From NCBI GenBank assembly GCA_034530615.2, contig JAVRCV020000068.1, forward strand, positions 1-64,000: a DNA stretch of 64,000 nt, in the 5' to 3' direction. The stretch comes from Aulosira sp. ZfuVER01. GTDB taxonomy: Bacteria; Cyanobacteriota; Cyanobacteriia; Cyanobacteriales; Nostocaceae. Of this stretch, positions 7,043-13,983 are shown piece after piece; within the stretch, counting starts at the first letter, position 1; the number at the start of each line of letters is the position of its first letter. Below the pieces are notes generated by a model. That model ran no database searches, had not been told where the DNA came from, and saw only the letters and a list, made by a program, of their open reading frames with translations. Both the position numbers and the translations under genes were made by a program.

Positions 7043-9184
7043 TTATTGGTGCTCCAATAAATGTTGAATATAATGCACGATCGCCTCTGCGGTTGGTACA
7101 TTAGTTGCTAGTAAAACTTGGTTAATATTGCAACTCCTCAACAGTGCTTCTTCATTAGCTTGTCCAGGCTGAGGTACCAGAAAATCTCTGAGGAAAATTA
7201 CTGCTAAGGTGTCTCCTGAGTTCACTAATGAATTAATTGTTTGATATCCTCCAGAAGTGGCTGCTGGAATTTGTTGGCTAATAGTTATACCTGCTTGTTG
7301 ACGTAAAACTTCACTAATAGATGGCCAGGCCACAGTCATACATTTTGAGAAAAATTCTTGATGCTGAGTTACAAAATCAGCTAGTTCTGATTTTTTGCTT
7401 TCGTGAGCGATGAGAACTATGTTTTTTTGCTCGATCATTTGCTGCGGCTCACTCACAGGTAATTCCTCAACAATTTCATCAGATTGTGCTATTTCTGCTC
7501 CAAAAATTTCTTCCAATGTTTGACTAATTGACTCGGCAGTTGAACTAGTTAATTCCGGCATGGTTTCATCTTCTAGTTCTTCAGTCATGGGACTAGATAT
7601 AACATCCAGTTTTTCTGTTATTTCTAAAGACTCAATATTAGTTGATTCTGAGGATTCATCGACTGTTGAAAGTAAAAATTCAACAGCTTCTAGCGTTTCT
7701 AAATTTCTACTTTCTGCAATTACTTCTTCCGTATTTATGGGACTTACATTAACGTCTTGATTGCTTAATGCTTCTACTTCGCTAACTTCGCTGATTTCCC
7801 CAGGTGTTTCAAGTTCAATAACAGTCTCTGGAACTGTTTCAACTATTGCTACTTCATCAGTACTGATGTCAGCAACTTGATTACTCATAGATGGCGATAC
7901 TTCAGGCTCTATTTCTGATGATTCACTAACTATGTCTTCATGGCTAAACTCTGGAGTAAAGCTATTTACAAATTCTGGGGCTTCTACTGCTGCAATATCT
8001 ACTCTGAACTCATCTACAGCATCAGTATTAATAGCTTCACCGATTTCGCTCACCGCTTCTGGTTGTTGGCTAACAAGATCGCGTGGTTGCACATTGGTAA
8101 ATTCTTGGAGAATTTCCGCGACATCTAGAGGAACTTTGCTCACTACTTCTGGTTGTTGGCTGACAAGATCGCGTGGTTGCACATTGGTAAATTCTTGGAG
8201 AATTTCCGCATCCCAATCAATGTCTTGCTCATTGATATCTGCGGGAACTTCACTCACCGCCTGAGATGGTTGGATAACTATACTACGTGGCTGGACAATG
8301 GTAAATTCTTGCGGAATTTCCGCATCCCAATCAATATCTTCCTCGTTAATATTAGAGGAAACTTCACTCACCGCCTCTGGTACAGGGCTAATTAAATCCT
8401 GGGGTTGTATGAATGTGGCTTCTTCTGCGGCTGGAACTTCACTCACCGCCTCTGGTACAGGGCTAATTAAATCTTGGGGTTGTATGAATGTGGCTTCTTC
8501 TGGGATTGGAACTTCACTCACCGCCTCTGCCTGGGGTTGTATGAAAGTGGCTTCTTCTGCAACTGGTGTACCTGCATCAACACCTTGCTCGCTCACAAAT
8601 GCAGGAACTTCGTTGACTGGTTGAGGAGTTTCAATGATGTTTTCTAGTGTGTTAATTGCCTCTTCTAATTCTGAAATTTCTACTTCGCTTTGAGGTTGAC
8701 TAAGTTCTTCAGACGATTCTGAACTAACCTGCTGTGGAACTTCGCTAATTACCTCTGGTGCTGGACGATCGACAATATTAATGTTGACATTTTCATCACT
8801 TCGCCAACCGGAAAAGAGTGCCGGATCGATAGTTCTAAATACTGTCTCTGGCAATTGTTCCGACAAAGGCATCATATCTTCTATTGTCATCACATAATCG
8901 CCAATCCGGATAACGTCTTTATCTTTCAACAAGAATGGTCTATTTTTTTCAGCTAATTTACCATTAATTATTGAGCCATTTCTACTACCAAGGTCGCAGA
9001 AATAGTAATTTCCACTTTGAATAAAGAACTTGCCGTGCACCCTACTAACATCAGGGCTGTCTAAGACTAAATCGGCATCAGGAGAACGACCGATAATGCA
9101 TTCTCCTTTTGGTGTAGTTGCTAACGCTAAATCAAGTTCGTTAACTTCATTTAGTGTTGGTGAGTAGTTAACTTTTACTTTCAT
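7043..9184 (-). CDS. FHA domain + acidic repeat linker + degenerate methylglyoxal synthase (MGS)-like domain
   Basis: FHA motifs IGRSPDADLVL, VSRVHG, DLGSRNGS. C-terminal IVLIAHESKK...AVIFLRD...LATNVPTAEA resembles MgsA. ATG overlaps the upstream TGA (ATGA, 9184-9181). Confidence 0.85.
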   Translation of the reverse strand: MKVKVNYSPTLNEVNELDLALATTPKGECIIGRSPDADLVLDSPDVSRVHGKFFIQSGNYYFCDLGSRNGSIINGKLAEKNRPFLLKDKDVIRIGDYVMTIEDMMPLSEQLPETVFRTIDPALFSGWRSDENVNINIVDRPAPEVISEVPQQVSSESSEELSQPQSEVEISELEEAINTLENIIETPQPVNEVPAFVSEQGVDAGTPVAEEATFIQPQAEAVSEVPIPEEATFIQPQDLISPVPEAVSEVPAAEEATFIQPQDLISPVPEAVSEVSSNINEEDIDWDAEIPQEFTIVQPRSIVIQPSQAVSEVPADINEQDIDWDAEILQEFTNVQPRDLVSQQPEVVSKVPLDVAEILQEFTNVQPRDLVSQQPEAVSEIGEAINTDAVDEFRVDIAAVEAPEFVNSFTPEFSHEDIVSESSEIEPEVSPSMSNQVADISTDEVAIVETVPETVIELETPGEISEVSEVEALSNQDVNVSPINTEEVIAESRNLETLEAVEFLLSTVDESSESTNIESLEITEKLDVISSPMTEELEDETMPELTSSTAESISQTLEEIFGAEIAQSDEIVEELPVSEPQQMIEQKNIVLIAHESKKSELADFVTQHQEFFSKCMTVAWPSISEVLRQQAGITISQQIPAATSGGYQTINSLVNSGDTLAVIFLRDFLVPQPGQANEEALLRSCNINQVLLATNVPTAEAIVHYIQHLLEHQ
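8050..8560 (-). repeat. Intragenic tandem repeats (75, 90 and 111 nt periods) in the FHA protein linker
   Basis: EEATFIQPQDLISPVPEAVSEV units (acttcactca at 8361, 8436, 8511), EILQEFTNVQPRDLVSQQPE x2 and DIDWDAEI x2. Confidence 0.85.
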
Positions 9185-9339
9185 AATAATTTTTCGTTAA
9201 TTTTATTAATTTCTGTAACCCAGCGCTGACGGGTTTTATGCTCTAAATTTAAAATATCATTTTGTGACCAGTGGAAATGATAAGCAATGAAAGCTACCTC
9301 CTCATATAGAGTATCAGAGGGGTAGCTTACGACTCCCCC
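9181..9339 (-). CDS. DUF6760-like C-terminal extension of the tail assembly chaperone, expressed by a predicted -1 frameshift (not in the ORF track)
   Basis: The -1 frame reads GGVVSYPSDTLYEEVAFIAYHFHWSQNDILNLEHKTRQRWVTEINKINEKLL*. No ATG/GTG/TTG lies between the upstream in-frame TAG (9369-9367) and its stop. It overlaps the chaperone end at GCG GGG GAG TCG TAA. Confidence 0.8.
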   Translation of the reverse strand, partial: GGVVSYPSDTLYEEVAFIAYHFHWSQNDILNLEHKTRQRWVTEINKINEKLL

Positions 9340-9710
9340 GCTAGTTTTAACTCTACTGAATATTGACTATTGCAATGAGGACATTGTGTGGGTATTTGTA
9401 CATTTCCTTGCTGATTAATCCGATTATAAAATTCTCTGAGATAGGCAATATCATGAAGGAGTAATCCTTCTAACAAATCGGGGCTAACAGAGTTTAAACT
9501 GCCTAAACGTGTAATAACACGGGCGAGCATTACCAATACCTCATAAGCAGGATTTTCCTGAACTTTGCGTTCTTGTTGTACCAAAATTTCATCTTTGGCA
9601 GTAGCTAAACGCATCACACCATGACGATGAACTCGGTTTTGGCTATCAATCAACCCACGGGGAAGAATGAAAGCAAATTCAGTGCTGAGATTATCCTGCT
9701 TGCGACCCAT
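9327..9710 (-). CDS. CIS/phage tail assembly chaperone with C-terminal CPHC motif
   Basis: TEFAFILPRG..HRHGVMRLATAKDEI...DIAYLREFYNRIN...CPHC. Lies downstream of the tube genes. Confidence 0.8.
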   Translation of the reverse strand: MGRKQDNLSTEFAFILPRGLIDSQNRVHRHGVMRLATAKDEILVQQERKVQENPAYEVLVMLARVITRLGSLNSVSPDLLEGLLLHDIAYLREFYNRINQQGNVQIPTQCPHCNSQYSVELKLAGES

Positions 9711-9810: not shown

Positions 9811-10155
9811 TTAAGAAGCTGAATTTTGCAATATTTTTACTGTATCTTCTGATTGGGAAGTAGGACTCTCCGAGCCGTTGATTTGACGGTAAAAATCTTG
9901 GAGGTAATTTAAATCTTGGGAGAAAAAGTTTTCCACGATCGCAGGAGTTACTTCCGATAGAGCGCCCAAGAGAGTAATTACCCGTGACAAAATAATAATC
10001 GTGGCATAAGCTTCATTAGCTTTGACTCGTGGATCGCGTAAAGGTGCAATTTCGTCTATCGCTGTTGATAACCGCATTACACCCTTGCGGTGGAGGTTGC
10101 CTTCCGAGTCTAGATACCCTTTAGGCAGTGTAAATTCAAACTCTGTCGGAAACAT
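9811..10155 (-). CDS. CIS/phage tail assembly chaperone paralogue (no CPHC motif)
   Basis: TEFEFTLPKGYLD..HRKGVMRLSTAIDEI...DLNYLQDFYRQIN, clearly paralogous to 9327-9710. AGGAGG Shine-Dalgarno upstream. Confidence 0.8.
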   Translation of the reverse strand: MFPTEFEFTLPKGYLDSEGNLHRKGVMRLSTAIDEIAPLRDPRVKANEAYATIIILSRVITLLGALSEVTPAIVENFFSQDLNYLQDFYRQINGSESPTSQSEDTVKILQNSAS

Positions 10156-10166
10156 AATCCTCCTGA

Positions 10167-10661
10167 TTACTTCACACGCTTAAATTCCTCGAAAGCAATC
10201 TCCAGTTCTTCTATATGTAAATCGGTGCTACGGGCGTTGAAATCAGCCATTTTATAACTAGCAGGCCAAGCACCGGCTAATTCAAATCTCGCTTCTTCTT
10301 GACTTGCCTGATTGTAGATAGACAAAGCCATGAGTTTTCTTTGCTTTGCCCATTTACCATTTTGTACCTCTTCAAACCACTTCCAAAAAACCATAGAGTT
10401 AGCAATTGTACCTCTACGCAGAGTAATATTGCCACTTTTAACATTTCCTGGAAGCTTGGTTCTCACTACTTGACCTTTAGCCGCCGCAGCCCATTTATTA
10501 GCAGTGACTTCACAAATTTCAATTGCATCTTGTGTTCTTTTAAAACCTTGACACTCTAGGAAGTAGCAATCGATATTATCTTTTTGTCCGTCTAGTGTCA
10601 GTCCCAAATAAAATCTATGGGCGGCAAGAATTTCCGGAAGCTTTTCAGTTGCTTGAGCCAC
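10167..10661 (-). CDS. Tail tube protein (T4 gp19-like, Afp1/Afp5 family)
   Basis: KLPGNVKSGNITLRRG, FWKWF, RFELAGAWPASY and IEELEIAFE motifs. Confidence 0.88.
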   Translation of the reverse strand: MAQATEKLPEILAAHRFYLGLTLDGQKDNIDCYFLECQGFKRTQDAIEICEVTANKWAAAAKGQVVRTKLPGNVKSGNITLRRGTIANSMVFWKWFEEVQNGKWAKQRKLMALSIYNQASQEEARFELAGAWPASYKMADFNARSTDLHIEELEIAFEEFKRVK

Positions 10662-10780: not shown

Positions 10781-11242
10781 TTACTGAACTCGTTCAATAC
10801 CTTCATGAACTAATTCGACTGTTTCGTTTGCCATATCACCACTAGAAGCTGTTAATGTCGGGCCTGTATATTTCACAGGGTAGCAATTAAGAATATTCCA
10901 ACGAGCTACTTCTTTGAGTTGTTGATTGTAAGCAACTACCGAAGCTGATTTACGATTTTGATCCCACTGACGAGGTTTTCCCATATCCTCGTTACACTTT
11001 TTGTACCATTGGTAAAGGTCTACATCAGCAGTTGCAATTACCTTAATTGTGATATTTGTAAACTTGGTAACTGTCGGAGTTGCTTGCCGCCAGATTTTAC
11101 CGCCTTTGGTGGAGCCATGTACTTCTTGGGCGGGGGTATTTTCTACACCTAAACCGCTGATTTCTTTAATAGATTTCTCTGTAATTCCGTCTGCTTCAAA
11201 ATAAAACAGACAAGCAGCTAATAACTCAGGTTGACCAGGCAT
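10781..11242 (-). CDS. Tail tube protein (T4 gp19-like, Afp1/Afp5 family)
   Basis: EISGLG, KFTNITIK, LYQWY, ARWNILNCYPVKYTGP and ETVELVHEGIER motifs. Confidence 0.88.
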   Translation of the reverse strand: MPGQPELLAACLFYFEADGITEKSIKEISGLGVENTPAQEVHGSTKGGKIWRQATPTVTKFTNITIKVIATADVDLYQWYKKCNEDMGKPRQWDQNRKSASVVAYNQQLKEVARWNILNCYPVKYTGPTLTASSGDMANETVELVHEGIERVQ

Positions 11243-11343: not shown

Positions 11344-13005
11344 TTACTCTTCATCCTCAATGCCATTCCATTGGCTAATTCGGAAGATAACAAACTCTGC
11401 TGGTCTGACTGGGCAAACACCAACTTCAATATATAAACGTCCCAAAATTCTCGTTTCTGGTGGGTTTAATTCCTCATCGCACTTGACATAAAATGCTTGC
11501 TCTGGGGAAGCACCAAATAAAGCACCTTCACGCCAAATTCTTTCTAAGAAGTTGCTCACAGTGCGTTTTACTCTTGCCCATAAATCTTCATCATTGGGTT
11601 CAAAAACTACCCATTGAGTACCCAATTCAATTGATTTTTCTATATAACTAATTAACCGCCGCACACTGATATAACGCCACTCAGTTTTATCTGGTTCAAC
11701 TAAAGTTCTTGCGCCCCAAATGCGAATACCGCGATTGGGGAAGGTACGAATACAGTTAATTCCGAGGGGGTTTAAAAGTTCCTGTTCGCGGAAGTTGGTT
11801 TCATAGCCCAAACCAATCACACCTCTGGGTACTTCGTTGGCTGGTGCTTTATAAACGCCTCTAGTTTCGTCGGTGCGTGCCCACACACCCATGACGTGAC
11901 CGCAAGGTGGGATGAGAATAGGATTACCGCGATCGCGCGGATTCGGAACTTTGATCCAAGGATAATACAGAGCTGCAAACATGGAACGGCGGTTAAATCT
12001 GTTTAACCACTCCACTACCTGTTGAGGTTTGGTCTGTTCTGGTGGTGGGTCGATTAAAACCATGCGGTTGGGTGGATTGGGAATATCACCACTCGCAGAA
12101 CCCTCACACATACTAATCATCAGTTCCATGATGCCGTGGATTTGATCCAAGTTCATCACTTGCGCTTGATAAGCCCGCATTAAATCGGGACAAGCTAGCA
12201 TGGTGATTTCATCAATTTCAAAAATTCCCCGTACCCCTGTCCGGTCATCACGTACCCCTTCAAAATCCTGGGAAAATCTATCGACTGTCTGGGCAACAAT
12301 GGGCGGTGCTAGTTCATACTGGCCATTAGTCGGACGACGAGATAAAGGTTGTCCTGTCTGAGAAATATCTTCTACGTTGATATACATAGAATTTCTCAAG
12401 GCTGTTACTGCATAAGTTCCTACCTGGGCAGGAACTTCGCGGTTCATGGTTAAGTTCTCATATTGTTCTAAAATTTCATCTCCCCGACGAATTTGCACTG
12501 TAAAGTATTCGCCTGTATTGGGGGGTGCTTCTCCTTCAGTACCTTCAGGTAAAGCACGAGGACCGCTATCACTAATCAAGATATCAATCGTACCGCCTGC
12601 TGCTTGTTCGGGGCGCAAAGTAAAACGGATAGCTGGACGATTACCACGACCACTAATTCTGAGGGTAGCAGGTTCTTGGCTTGCAGGCTTGGGTGCGCCT
12701 GGTAACTGCGTACCAATACTTGTCACCCAGCAGCGACCGCCACCATTCATAAAGTAGCCATAGACAGCAAAGGGTAAATAGGCGTTGAAATCGGTGAAGC
12801 CGTCGGAGTTAGGACGGGCAAAATAGTTGAGATATTGCGTCCAATTGGTCACTAACATGGGCTTAAATAGTTCAGCCCCATCACGAATATCTTCGGTAAA
12901 GCCGACAAACCCACCAACTGCGGTACTGACACCTTCTATCGGTCGGCTACCTCGGTCAATTTCTTCAACATAGACACCAGGCGCAAAGTAATCAAGTCTA
13001 GCCAT
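11344..13005 (-). CDS. Contractile tail sheath protein (Afp2/3/4 family)
   Basis: YFAPGVYVEE, AALYYPWIKV, GVYKAPANE, LNPLGINCIR, IWGARTL, WRYISVRR, WVVFEPN and PAEFVIFRI motifs. Confidence 0.95.
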   Translation of the reverse strand: MARLDYFAPGVYVEEIDRGSRPIEGVSTAVGGFVGFTEDIRDGAELFKPMLVTNWTQYLNYFARPNSDGFTDFNAYLPFAVYGYFMNGGGRCWVTSIGTQLPGAPKPASQEPATLRISGRGNRPAIRFTLRPEQAAGGTIDILISDSGPRALPEGTEGEAPPNTGEYFTVQIRRGDEILEQYENLTMNREVPAQVGTYAVTALRNSMYINVEDISQTGQPLSRRPTNGQYELAPPIVAQTVDRFSQDFEGVRDDRTGVRGIFEIDEITMLACPDLMRAYQAQVMNLDQIHGIMELMISMCEGSASGDIPNPPNRMVLIDPPPEQTKPQQVVEWLNRFNRRSMFAALYYPWIKVPNPRDRGNPILIPPCGHVMGVWARTDETRGVYKAPANEVPRGVIGLGYETNFREQELLNPLGINCIRTFPNRGIRIWGARTLVEPDKTEWRYISVRRLISYIEKSIELGTQWVVFEPNDEDLWARVKRTVSNFLERIWREGALFGASPEQAFYVKCDEELNPPETRILGRLYIEVGVCPVRPAEFVIFRISQWNGIEDEE

Positions 13006-13143: not shown

Positions 13144-13983
13144 TCATTCAGGAGTTAGTAAGATTTCTTTGAAGCTATAACTTTGGCTATCCACCAAGAC
13201 ATTGACATTCTGAGGTAAATAGCCAGGACAATTTACTGTCAAAACATAATTACCTATACGAATGTCTTCAAAAAAGAAAAGTCCTTCTTTATTGCTGGCT
13301 GCTGATTTTTTAGTTCTTTGTACAGTTACTTCTGCTTCAACTAAGGGCAGATTGGTGACTGCACTTTTGACCATACCTGCGATCGCTACCCGCCTGGTAA
13401 CAACTGTGCCGTTGCCATTCTCACTCAATTGGTTTTGCAAATTGAAAATGCGTTCCGAAACCAGCGGTACGAGAGTAGATTGCGGCTCAACTGGTATCAT
13501 TGCTGTCACATACAAAGCGGAACGCAAAGGCACATTCAGCGCACTCCATAATGAACCAATCTCAATCGGCGGATCTAAGGCAACTGTTAAAGAAAGATTG
13601 CCGTAACCCCGTAATTCTGGAACCAAATACTCTTCTTGCAAAGCACGATGGCGCAGCAGTACACTTAAGGCTTCGCTGAGTAGGTGATGTTCACCTAAAG
13701 CTGTTCTATCCCATGCCGTTAATAGCATTGAGACATCAAACCAATTAGGCGACCAACTAACAGAGGTCGGCTGTAGACCTCGTGCAGGTTTACGTTCAAC
13801 TTGCCTACCGGATTGTTGAAACTGCTTACTCTCACGAATGTCGTAGACGTACAAATTAAGAGTTGGCCCTGCACCCTCTTCCCGACGATTAATAGGATGA
13901 CTGAAGTCAATTTGCTCTGTACTGGTGAGTGAGGTTCCTCCAGCTAGAATTTCTGCTAAAGTTTGAAGAACGAAGATAAGCAT
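13144..13983 (-). CDS. DUF4255 (Pvc16/Afp16 cap/terminator-like) protein with C-terminal carboxypeptidase-regulatory-like Ig domain
   Basis: LNLYVYDIRE, MLLTAW, EHHLLSEALSVLLRH and LWSALNVPLR motifs. C-terminal GMVKSAVTNLPL...GNYVLTVNCPGY. Confidence 0.8.
   Translation of the reverse strand: MLIFVLQTLAEILAGGTSLTSTEQIDFSHPINRREEGAGPTLNLYVYDIRESKQFQQSGRQVERKPARGLQPTSVSWSPNWFDVSMLLTAWDRTALGEHHLLSEALSVLLRHRALQEEYLVPELRGYGNLSLTVALDPPIEIGSLWSALNVPLRSALYVTAMIPVEPQSTLVPLVSERIFNLQNQLSENGNGTVVTRRVAIAGMVKSAVTNLPLVEAEVTVQRTKKSAASNKEGLFFFEDIRIGNYVLTVNCPGYLPQNVNVLVDSQSYSFKEILLTPE

Follow-up and report, generated by a model that had tools for sequence, protein, structure and literature searches.

A candidate phosphorylation-controlled scaffold with an FHA domain and a dead MgsA fold, encoded in a cyanobacterial injection-system cluster

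Why should a gene cluster for a contractile injection system (CIS) encode, after its tail-assembly-chaperone-like genes, a protein that joins a phosphothreonine-binding FHA domain to the fold of methylglyoxal synthase (MgsA)? The question is raised by Aulosira sp. ZfuVER01, whose nearly complete genome of 8.0 Mb contains such a gene within the stretch analysed here as the window, the first 64 kb of contig C68 (JAVRCV020000068.1, positions 1 to 64,000). Our proposal, to which we give an even chance, is that the product, the FHA-MgsA protein, would be a scaffold under the control of phosphorylation, serving a predicted membrane Ser/Thr kinase that is inherited with the same injection system. The gene and its parts are the following:

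7043..9184, minus strand: gene for the FHA domain, acidic Thr-repeat linker and dead MgsA domain, 713 aa
8900..9097, minus strand: FHA domain, residues 30-95 (PF00498, E 1.4e-17)
8843..8845, minus strand: Thr114 (LPETVF), right behind the FHA domain, a candidate phospho-acceptor
7439..8869, minus strand: acidic, proline-rich linker, residues 106-582 (477 residues), delimited by composition
8081..8560, minus strand: six E-x-T-x-hydrophobic-Q-P repeats (Thr213, 232, 257, 295, 333 and 363)
7067..7429, minus strand: MgsA-fold domain, residues 586-706, with Tyr647 for Asp71 and Gly674 for His98

The proposal starts from the threonines. In the 77 of 86 family representatives that carry both domains, the pattern T-hydrophobic-hydrophobic-Q occurs 116 times, spread over 52 linkers, compared with 7.5 times in 200 shuffles (maximum 16), and its Ser version shows no excess (8 versus 9.0 expected); internal duplication and kinship inflate the Thr count, but would do so for Ser likewise. 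Motif number is weakly correlated with linker length (rho 0.34). The same kind of motif recurs in a Ser/Thr kinase of 693 aa on contig C33 (14668-16749), which adjoins an AAA ATPase and a Pvc16-like gene: its catalytic motifs are intact, one membrane helix is predicted at residues 654-672, and ahead of this segment stand eight T-[IL]-F-Q-P repeats. This kinase was found independently, as the best BLAST match of the kinases that lie beside the gene in three other loci (L143, L145 and L147). The tails of its family carry the motif 93 times in 31 of 37 members (3.1 expected; 5 versus 3.3 for Ser), and a hydrophobic segment is present in 29 of the 37, some members being cut by assembly gaps. Among 6002 open reading frames (ORFs) of at least 120 aa, only two contain three or more T-x-hydrophobic-Q-P motifs, the kinase (eight) and the FHA-MgsA protein (six), and none of the other 48 kinase-like ORFs of the genome has more than two of a looser form. 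The link to Ser/Thr phospho-signalling suggested in a first-pass annotation of this DNA has thereby gained a concrete candidate, a predicted membrane kinase with the same Thr motif.

The two genes also tend to occur together. Across 151 family genomes, 38 hold both, five the scaffold gene alone, four the kinase alone and 104 neither; for the kinase, the best 15 candidates per genome were scored, and the five kinase-less genomes were rechecked in full, which brought to light a 61% fragment at a contig end in one (G715) and none in the other four. Both are kept in G667, G733, G206, G649 and G626, though they lie megabases or hundreds of kb apart. Only three of the 76 intact proteins from GTDB loci are devoid of the motif (L079, L080 and L093), and all three come from genomes without a cognate kinase. 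We judge it probable, on these patterns, that the kinase and the FHA-MgsA protein interact. As a separate observation, a response-regulator protein in a chemotaxis-like cluster (C63:56268-57833) contains a 33-aa repeat in four copies with a similar Thr motif, E-K-T-V-I-Q.

The FHA domain appears equipped for such a contact. Its profile match lies above the cut-off with the G-R, S-x-x-H and N-G residues all present, as had been noted at first pass, and G32, R33, S47, R48, H50 and N69 recur without exception in all 77 family representatives, G70 in 76 of them; to judge by these residues, the phosphothreonine-binding pocket is intact. Thr114 is invariant in 40 of 40 aligned full-length relatives, and T-[VI]-hydrophobic follows within 30 aa of the FHA domain in 58 of the 77 representatives. 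The linker consists to 23.5% of Asp and Glu, 2.1% of Lys and Arg and 8.6% of Pro, is non-helical by composition, and ranges from 89 to 738 aa across the family. Its earlier description as about 450 aa of acidic repeats was right about the acidic character, but repeats make up only part of the linker, including two short tandem arrays. By profile search, the FHA-MgsA protein has no toxin domain and no core domain of extracellular contractile injection systems (eCIS), and it lacks a hydrophobic segment (best 19-residue mean 1.16).

The Pfam search that identified the FHA domain gave no match for the C-terminal domain at E<=1, and scores against TIGR00160 (75.7-80.8 bits, cut-off 146.9) and PRK05234 (74-79.2, cut-off 84) remain below threshold. 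MgsA structures in the PDB are nevertheless matched at E 3e-20 (8u2v, 1wo8, 6f2c and 1b93), an AlphaFold2 model of the domain (pLDDT 92.8) superimposes on MgsA with a TM score of 0.88 and an rmsd of 1.1-1.3 A, carbamoyl phosphate synthetase domains follow as the next fold matches, and an ESM Atlas search returned MgsA clusters only; the assignment as an MGS-like domain has thus been borne out by sequence and model. In MgsA, passages of PMC7843640 describe Asp71 as the catalytic base and His98 as a proton helper, with Lys23, Ser65 and Thr45-Gly49 binding phosphate. Aligned with 41 MgsA rows taken as 'active' for carrying Asp71 and His98, the 91 family members have Tyr (83), Phe (6) or His (2) at the Asp71 position and Asp in 0 of 91, so that the catalytic base is gone throughout. 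Asp101 is never Asp, the phosphate loop ATGTTG has become AWPSIS, and Thr48 and Lys23 are kept in 2 and 51 of the 91, respectively; equivalents of His19 (87/91), Asp91 (90/91), Arg107 (87/91) and the Gly-Gly loop are retained, where Asp91, Asp101 and Arg107 are labelled by what we take to be the MgsA numbering. The alignments confirm all three motif changes that had been read as catalytic loss from the letters (ATGTT to AWPSI, GGD to GGY, QPHxxD to QPGQAN), and the domain has evidently lost catalysis; an active methylglyoxal synthase is ruled out by the loss of Asp71, His98 and the TGTTG loop together with the scores below cut-off. What it shares with MgsA is sequence, fold, the retained residues and the last helices; what sets it apart, besides these losses, is the FHA fusion and a separate clade. 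Nor does the gene look like one in decay. Against five relatives, the window copy has dN/dS values of 0.10-0.28 for the FHA and 0.11-0.20 for the MgsA-like domain, obtained as simple pairwise counts over about 110 codons; because both domains are under purifying selection, the FHA-MgsA protein is evidently a maintained pseudoenzyme. E. coli MgsA is a homohexamer. The PDB entry 1wo8 for MgsA lists six chains.

A search of 1.84 billion representatives at E<=1e-30 puts this pseudoenzyme family at 91 clusters (50% identity), and 327 relatives at E<=0.001 were found among 948 candidates. Relatives with names come from heterocyst-type cyanobacteria, one of them from Nostoc punctiforme (P0047), which is grown as a laboratory strain, and some databases label them 'methylglyoxal synthase'. 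In a tree of 100 rows, for which 20 of the 91 dead members were picked for spread, they form a clade of their own (support 100/98). An origin from the cyanobacterial fusion of MgsA with a lipid kinase was considered; the tree separates both groups but is too short to name a donor. The lipid-kinase half of that fusion, without the MgsA half, is present at C31:110954-111865. With the query used, no canonical mgsA was found in this genome, and canonical-type matches were found in 4 of the 151 family genomes. Intact copies, 76 in number, encode proteins of 493-876 aa, and the G621 protein has 328 aa. In family f5, a second FHA protein of 313-335 aa is encoded directly 3' of the FHA-MgsA gene (L143 7488-8429, L144 6820-7764, L147 2589-3596, L148 1273-2217), with a 4-nt stop overlap in three loci; it has a similar Thr motif after the FHA domain and a conserved C-terminal part without Pfam match.

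How might kinase and scaffold work together? The kinase would phosphorylate the eight T-x-F-Q-P repeats of its own cytoplasmic tail, on which the FHA domain could then dock, and would go on to mark Thr114 and the six linker motifs, so that FHA domains of one copy might bind the linkers of others. The dead MgsA domain, to judge from its fold, may oligomerise and so present several FHA arms, which would produce a multivalent cluster at the membrane. The last and weakest step would have this cluster decide when or where the injection system is assembled or fires, a part played in type VI secretion by PpkA and Fha; where the ATGA overlap described below exists, synthesis may be partly tied to a -1 frameshift, which the mechanism does not require. 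The most elaborate version is a threonine switch private to this clade, with a shared T-hydrophobic-hydrophobic-Q-P code, a dead hexamer, recruited from metabolism, whose six arms form on phosphorylation a cluster at the membrane that tethers or fires a six-fold tail, and a dose tied to frameshifting; as a whole, we regard it as tentative and rather doubtful.

The closest parallel is the type VI PpkA-Fha-PppA pathway of Thr phosphorylation (described in parts of PMC3953482 and bioRxiv 10.64898/2025.12.08.692957). Here as there, a membrane Ser/Thr kinase and an FHA protein with an intact pocket are encoded with a contractile machine, and Thr sites lie on the FHA protein or its membrane partner. 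The machine is of a different kind, however, an eCIS-type tail with cap and chaperone genes whose neighbours are gp19 tubes, a phage sheath, Pvc16, baseplate J and an AAA ATPase; moreover, a dead MgsA fold forms the C-terminal part of the FHA protein, the Thr motif occurs in multiple copies in kinase and scaffold alike, and the pair itself is a predicted one. By analogy, it may work like the type VI pathway rather than being a member of it. Eukaryotic TIFA-ALPK1, as presented in portions of PMC10865109, offers a second analogy, in that an FHA protein containing a disordered segment is phosphorylated on a Thr by a kinase and clusters through FHA-phosphothreonine contacts; it is unrelated beyond the FHA domain and has one Thr site.

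The machine itself is only partly contained in the window, since its genes are split in this genome across at least three contigs (C68, C49 and C33). Upstream of the FHA-MgsA gene, we find:

9181..9184, minus strand: ATGA overlap of the DUF6760 stop (TGA 9183-9181) and the gene start (ATG 9184-9182)
9181..9335, minus strand: DUF6760 frame (PF20546, E 1e-16), -1 to chaperone-like ORF 2, no start of its own
9292..9327, minus strand: predicted hairpin, 5 nt after the slippery site (z -2.5)
9333..9339, minus strand: slippery site GGGGGAG (conserved pattern GGGGGA[AG])
9327..9710, minus strand: tail-assembly-chaperone-like ORF 2, 127 aa, zero frame of the frameshift, 40% identity to ORF 1
9811..10155, minus strand: tail-assembly-chaperone-like ORF 1, 114 aa (Phage_TAC_7, E 0.008, below cut-off)
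10167..10661, minus strand: gp19-like tube protein (PF06841, E 9.5e-29)
10781..11242, minus strand: gp19-like tube protein (PF06841, E 3.7e-33)
11344..13005, minus strand: contractile sheath protein (PF04984, PF17482)
13144..13983, minus strand: Pvc16-like cap protein (PF14065, E 1.9e-21)

Contig C49 contributes a module of tube initiator, a 980-aa low-complexity ORF, LysM/CIS_tube, VgrG, PAAR, gp25, baseplate J, Tail_P2_I and DUF4159, and C33 the AAA ATPase, a second Pvc16-like gene and the Ser/Thr kinase. The 980-aa ORF, between tube initiator and LysM gene (C49:254285-257227; L131 13286-16228, minus strand), has no Pfam match, and its conservation is confined to the last 300 aa. With one contiguous VgrG, one baseplate J, PAAR and no Afp14 on C49, the system fits eCIS subtype IId, an assignment by gene content only, against the description in passages of PMC6899500. 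An AAA ATPase, a Pvc16 cap and the lack of a recognisable Afp14-type tape measure are likewise shared with the IId systems of lineage II, whereas the genes are split in this genome, and this clade is accompanied by a kinase and an FHA scaffold. The only cyanobacterial system studied belongs to a different type, according to parts of PMC8894136, and the Streptomyces CIS requires the membrane adaptor CisA, characterised in passages of PMC12237407 as bitopic and, unlike the kinase here, devoid of a kinase domain.

In a survey of 80 loci, one genome per species and biased by the scan toward close, intact copies, 61 have sheath and tubes upstream of the gene, 10 reach chaperone or DUF6760 genes before the contig ends, three end before the FHA part and six have long flanks without sheath. 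The fusion thus resides mostly at CIS loci, in line with the link to an injection system first drawn from the neighbouring genes. Among the 151 family genomes, the scaffold gene is present in 33 of 33 with a cognate sheath (>=79% identity) and missing from 25 of 27 with a more distant one. In families f5 and f17, it lies within the cluster in 9 of 16 loci examined, namely after DUF6760 (L139-L142 and L147), after the baseplate module (L143, L144 and L148) or ahead of the kinase and tube initiator (L145); the rest are four stand-alone copies, three of them broken, two loci with unrelated FHA proteins and one remnant. The gene therefore belongs to one injection-system clade, and its position in the cluster is not fixed. 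Supplementary tables of PMC8213781 point the same way: supplement 4 reports enrichment of FHA in eCIS clusters (odds ratio 5.6), and entries of supplement 12 list, for a contiguous cluster of Nostoc sp. NIES-3756, afp15, afp16, Pkinase, afp16, sheath, two tubes, two small ORFs and a 674-aa FHA protein, probably a member of the dead-MgsA family. The 'MGS' row of the published eCIS table is a gene with MGS and AICARFT_IMPCHas, which belongs to another family.

The gene start had been described as overlapping the TGA of the -1 frame and not the stop of the zero-frame chaperone, and this is what the coordinates bear out, the stop of chaperone-like ORF 2 lying at 9329-9327. That ORF (9710-9327) had no match in a Pfam profile search. 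GGGGGA[AG] is present in 109 of 115 DUF6760 loci, which include some genomes twice, the other six being remnants without chaperone genes, and DUF6760 has no start codon within eight codons upstream in 108 of the 115. All 58 distinct sequences keep seven stem pairs of the hairpin without change, even at synonymous positions of the 3' arm, and in each of the 58 z is below -2 against synonymous recoding; the search pattern had itself selected part of the 5' arm, and unchanged pairs yield no covariation. A slippery site before the zero-frame stop and a conserved startless -1 frame make this an arrangement of the lambda G/GT type by its sequence features. A -1 shift would yield a fusion of about 176 aa, and DUF6760 appears to extend a tail-assembly-chaperone-like gene by -1 frameshifting, with slippery site and hairpin recurring in every cyanobacterial locus seen; GGGGGAA is named as an observed motif in a passage of PMC10885494. 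The ATGA overlap recurs in 69 of 75 GTDB loci with DUF6760 and in 81 of 95 overall, the others having gaps of 2-363 nt. In the window, no Shine-Dalgarno-like run precedes the ATG, and the start-codon region has no notable RNA structure (z +1.1). Partial translational coupling to the frameshift is plausible. Dependence on it, as first supposed for re-initiation, is not, because copies behind a dead upstream frame stay under selection: 14 of 95 loci do without the overlap, and purifying selection on the gene continues in lineages where DUF6760 is a dead remnant and the cognate sheath is missing, so that obligate coupling is rejected. Independent losses of tail genes leave a piece of DUF6760 before the gene start in L036, L060, L073, L080, L130, L164-L167 and L171; this leftover may hold a promoter or initiation region. 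A scan for promoters and terminators returned fewer sites than chance (9 versus 17.3 in shuffles, and 3 versus 6.7).

Several observations weigh against the scaffold proposal. Ten of 43 gene-bearing genomes lack a cognate sheath, and the five sheath-less genomes tested also lack the cognate spike and baseplate. Five loci share one common deletion breakpoint and a dead DUF6760 remnant, and pairwise dN/dS among these is 0-0.12 (FHA) and 0.04-0.28 (MgsA-like), with dS up to 0.44; a second tail-less group gives 0.23-0.31 and 0.05-0.28. Because purifying selection continues after the loss of the tail genes, the protein does have some role without this machine. Motif counts leave doubt as well: under the stricter T-hydrophobic-hydrophobic-Q, the kinase still ranks first (eight), but the FHA-MgsA protein (four) ties with unrelated ORFs, N at +1 having been allowed in the T-x-hydrophobic-Q-P pattern after the FHA-MgsA protein had been viewed, and the motif is found in 0 of 21 injection-system structural proteins checked in this genome. 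In three kin genomes the gene persists while kinase and linker motif are both missing, G723 combines two motifs and a full tail module with no cognate kinase found, G621 has the kinase and a 328-aa protein without motif, and six kinase tails are without it. The co-occurrence of the two genes is, furthermore, partly physical linkage, kin genomes are not independent, and the motif loss counts as one event. We hold the chance that the pair also regulates this machine near even, because the motif is missing from all 21 machine proteins and the gene outlives the machine.

These same points lend substance to a different account of the pair, in which kinase and FHA protein form a true signalling pair directed at stress, differentiation or programmed lysis and co-expressed with the machine, the cluster being no more than their genomic home. 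Purifying selection persists after loss of sheath, tubes, spike and baseplate, the kinase is kept in 7 of the 10 sheath-less genomes, machine proteins carry no motif, and many related systems work without the gene, as its absence from 25 of 27 distant-sheath genomes illustrates; yet all 33 cognate systems have it, it is found inside the cluster in three families, at three positions in all, and three of the four stand-alone f5 copies are broken, which leaves this account possible but not likely. The dead MgsA domain might instead be a ligand sensor for phosphate or triose phosphate that alters the FHA arm, comparable to the allosteric MGS-like domain in carbamoyl phosphate synthetase, an idea compatible with a scaffold. 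In its favour, 87-90 of the 91 members retain equivalents of His19, the Gly-Gly loop, Asp91 and Arg107, carbamoyl phosphate synthetase domains come next in the fold matches, and no canonical mgsA was found in this genome with the query used. Against it, the phosphate loop is remodelled (AWPSIS, with Thr48 left in 2 members and Lys23 in 51), and the Tyr or Phe that replaces Asp71 in 89 of 91 would crowd the pocket; we consider such a sensor unlikely. That the protein is cargo or a particle part, loaded by the chaperone pair and disturbing phospho-signalling in a target compartment, would suit a gene that follows chaperone genes with a stop-start overlap and has a long low-complexity region as in the cargo Tme (in the relevant part of PMC11126660). 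Tme and Sle1 of Streptomyces are indeed also large, partly disordered proteins encoded in injection clusters, but in the sections of PMC11126660 and bioRxiv 10.1101/2025.11.06.686954 that describe them they are marked by coiled coils, hydrophobic segments or links to DUF4157 and precede baseplate or sheath genes, and the FHA-MgsA protein has none of these. It also lacks an eCIS-core domain, a hydrophobic segment and a toxin domain, consists of two folded domains of which one is probably oligomeric, and is retained without a particle, while separate effector-type genes exist (C62); a role as cargo is accordingly quite improbable.

Least probable of all, and in our view hardly credible, is that the linker serves as a tape measure setting tail length. 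In phage lambda, the gene order is chaperone, frameshift product and then a long tape-measure ORF, and the order seen here resembles it; the tape-measure position assigned at first pass is justified by that analogy, but not for this cluster family. In all 19 related loci that lack the FHA-MgsA gene, the slot after DUF6760 is taken by a tube gene (7) or by unrelated genes, colinear clusters have their large low-complexity ORF between that tube gene and the LysM and VgrG genes, and on C49 the 980-aa low-complexity ORF directly precedes the LysM, spike and baseplate genes. Protein lengths of 533-876 aa stand beside sheaths that are 84-98% alike, and G621 has 328 aa; the linker is acidic, proline-rich, non-helical by composition and without hydrophobic segment; and the gene is not lost together with the tail. 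Lineage II systems are, in passages of PMC6899500, generally without an Afp14 tape measure. A fixed position between chaperone and baseplate, a helical or hydrophobic body and co-loss with the tail are all missing, and we reject the earlier idea of a ruler, the gene lying after the baseplate module in three loci and persisting without a tail. The 980-aa ORF of C49 is a better candidate for a ruler or lumen cargo than the FHA-MgsA protein.

No paper dealing with the fusion, the kinase pair or DUF6760 came to light in a literature search covering material other than subscription journals and bioRxiv supplements. FHA is absent from the main-text passages of PMC8213781, PMC6899500, PMC8894136, PMC12998442 and bioRxiv 10.1101/2025.11.06.686954 (on Sle1), the kinase goes likewise unmentioned in those of PMC8894136, and the part of PMC3482391 examined does not mention MGS. 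What appears to be new is the Thr-specific linker repeat, the kinase partner and the pseudoenzyme family, now defined by its 91 clusters; the kind of switch is already known. With specific threonines, two genes and a shared motif named, a phosphorylation switch on an eCIS-type machine becomes directly testable, and the pair bears on what triggers intracellular injection systems in filamentous bacteria. Roseiflexus injection clusters, too, list FHA and Pkinase-FHA genes among the entries of PMC8213781 supplement 12, a hint that phospho-control of intracellular injection systems may extend beyond cyanobacteria.

Elsewhere in the genome, a second contiguous injection cluster of another type (C38:13933-44901) encodes a sheath that is only 44% alike over the C-terminal part. 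A predicted effector of 1716 aa at C62:50572-55722 (L152) combines an eCIS-core domain with a C-terminal match to an Ntox1 RNase-like domain. A pair of genes of 744 and 763 aa, one with WD40 repeats, lies apart from the cluster here (C66:75914-80453, L153) but recurs within the injection clusters of many genomes and may encode receptor-binding or fibre parts. Finally, C36:36843-40901 (L154) contains a histidine-kinase-like gene, a LuxR-type response regulator and a 714-aa kinase-like/PBP gene, relatives of which adjoin the injection cluster in L139, L140 and L145.

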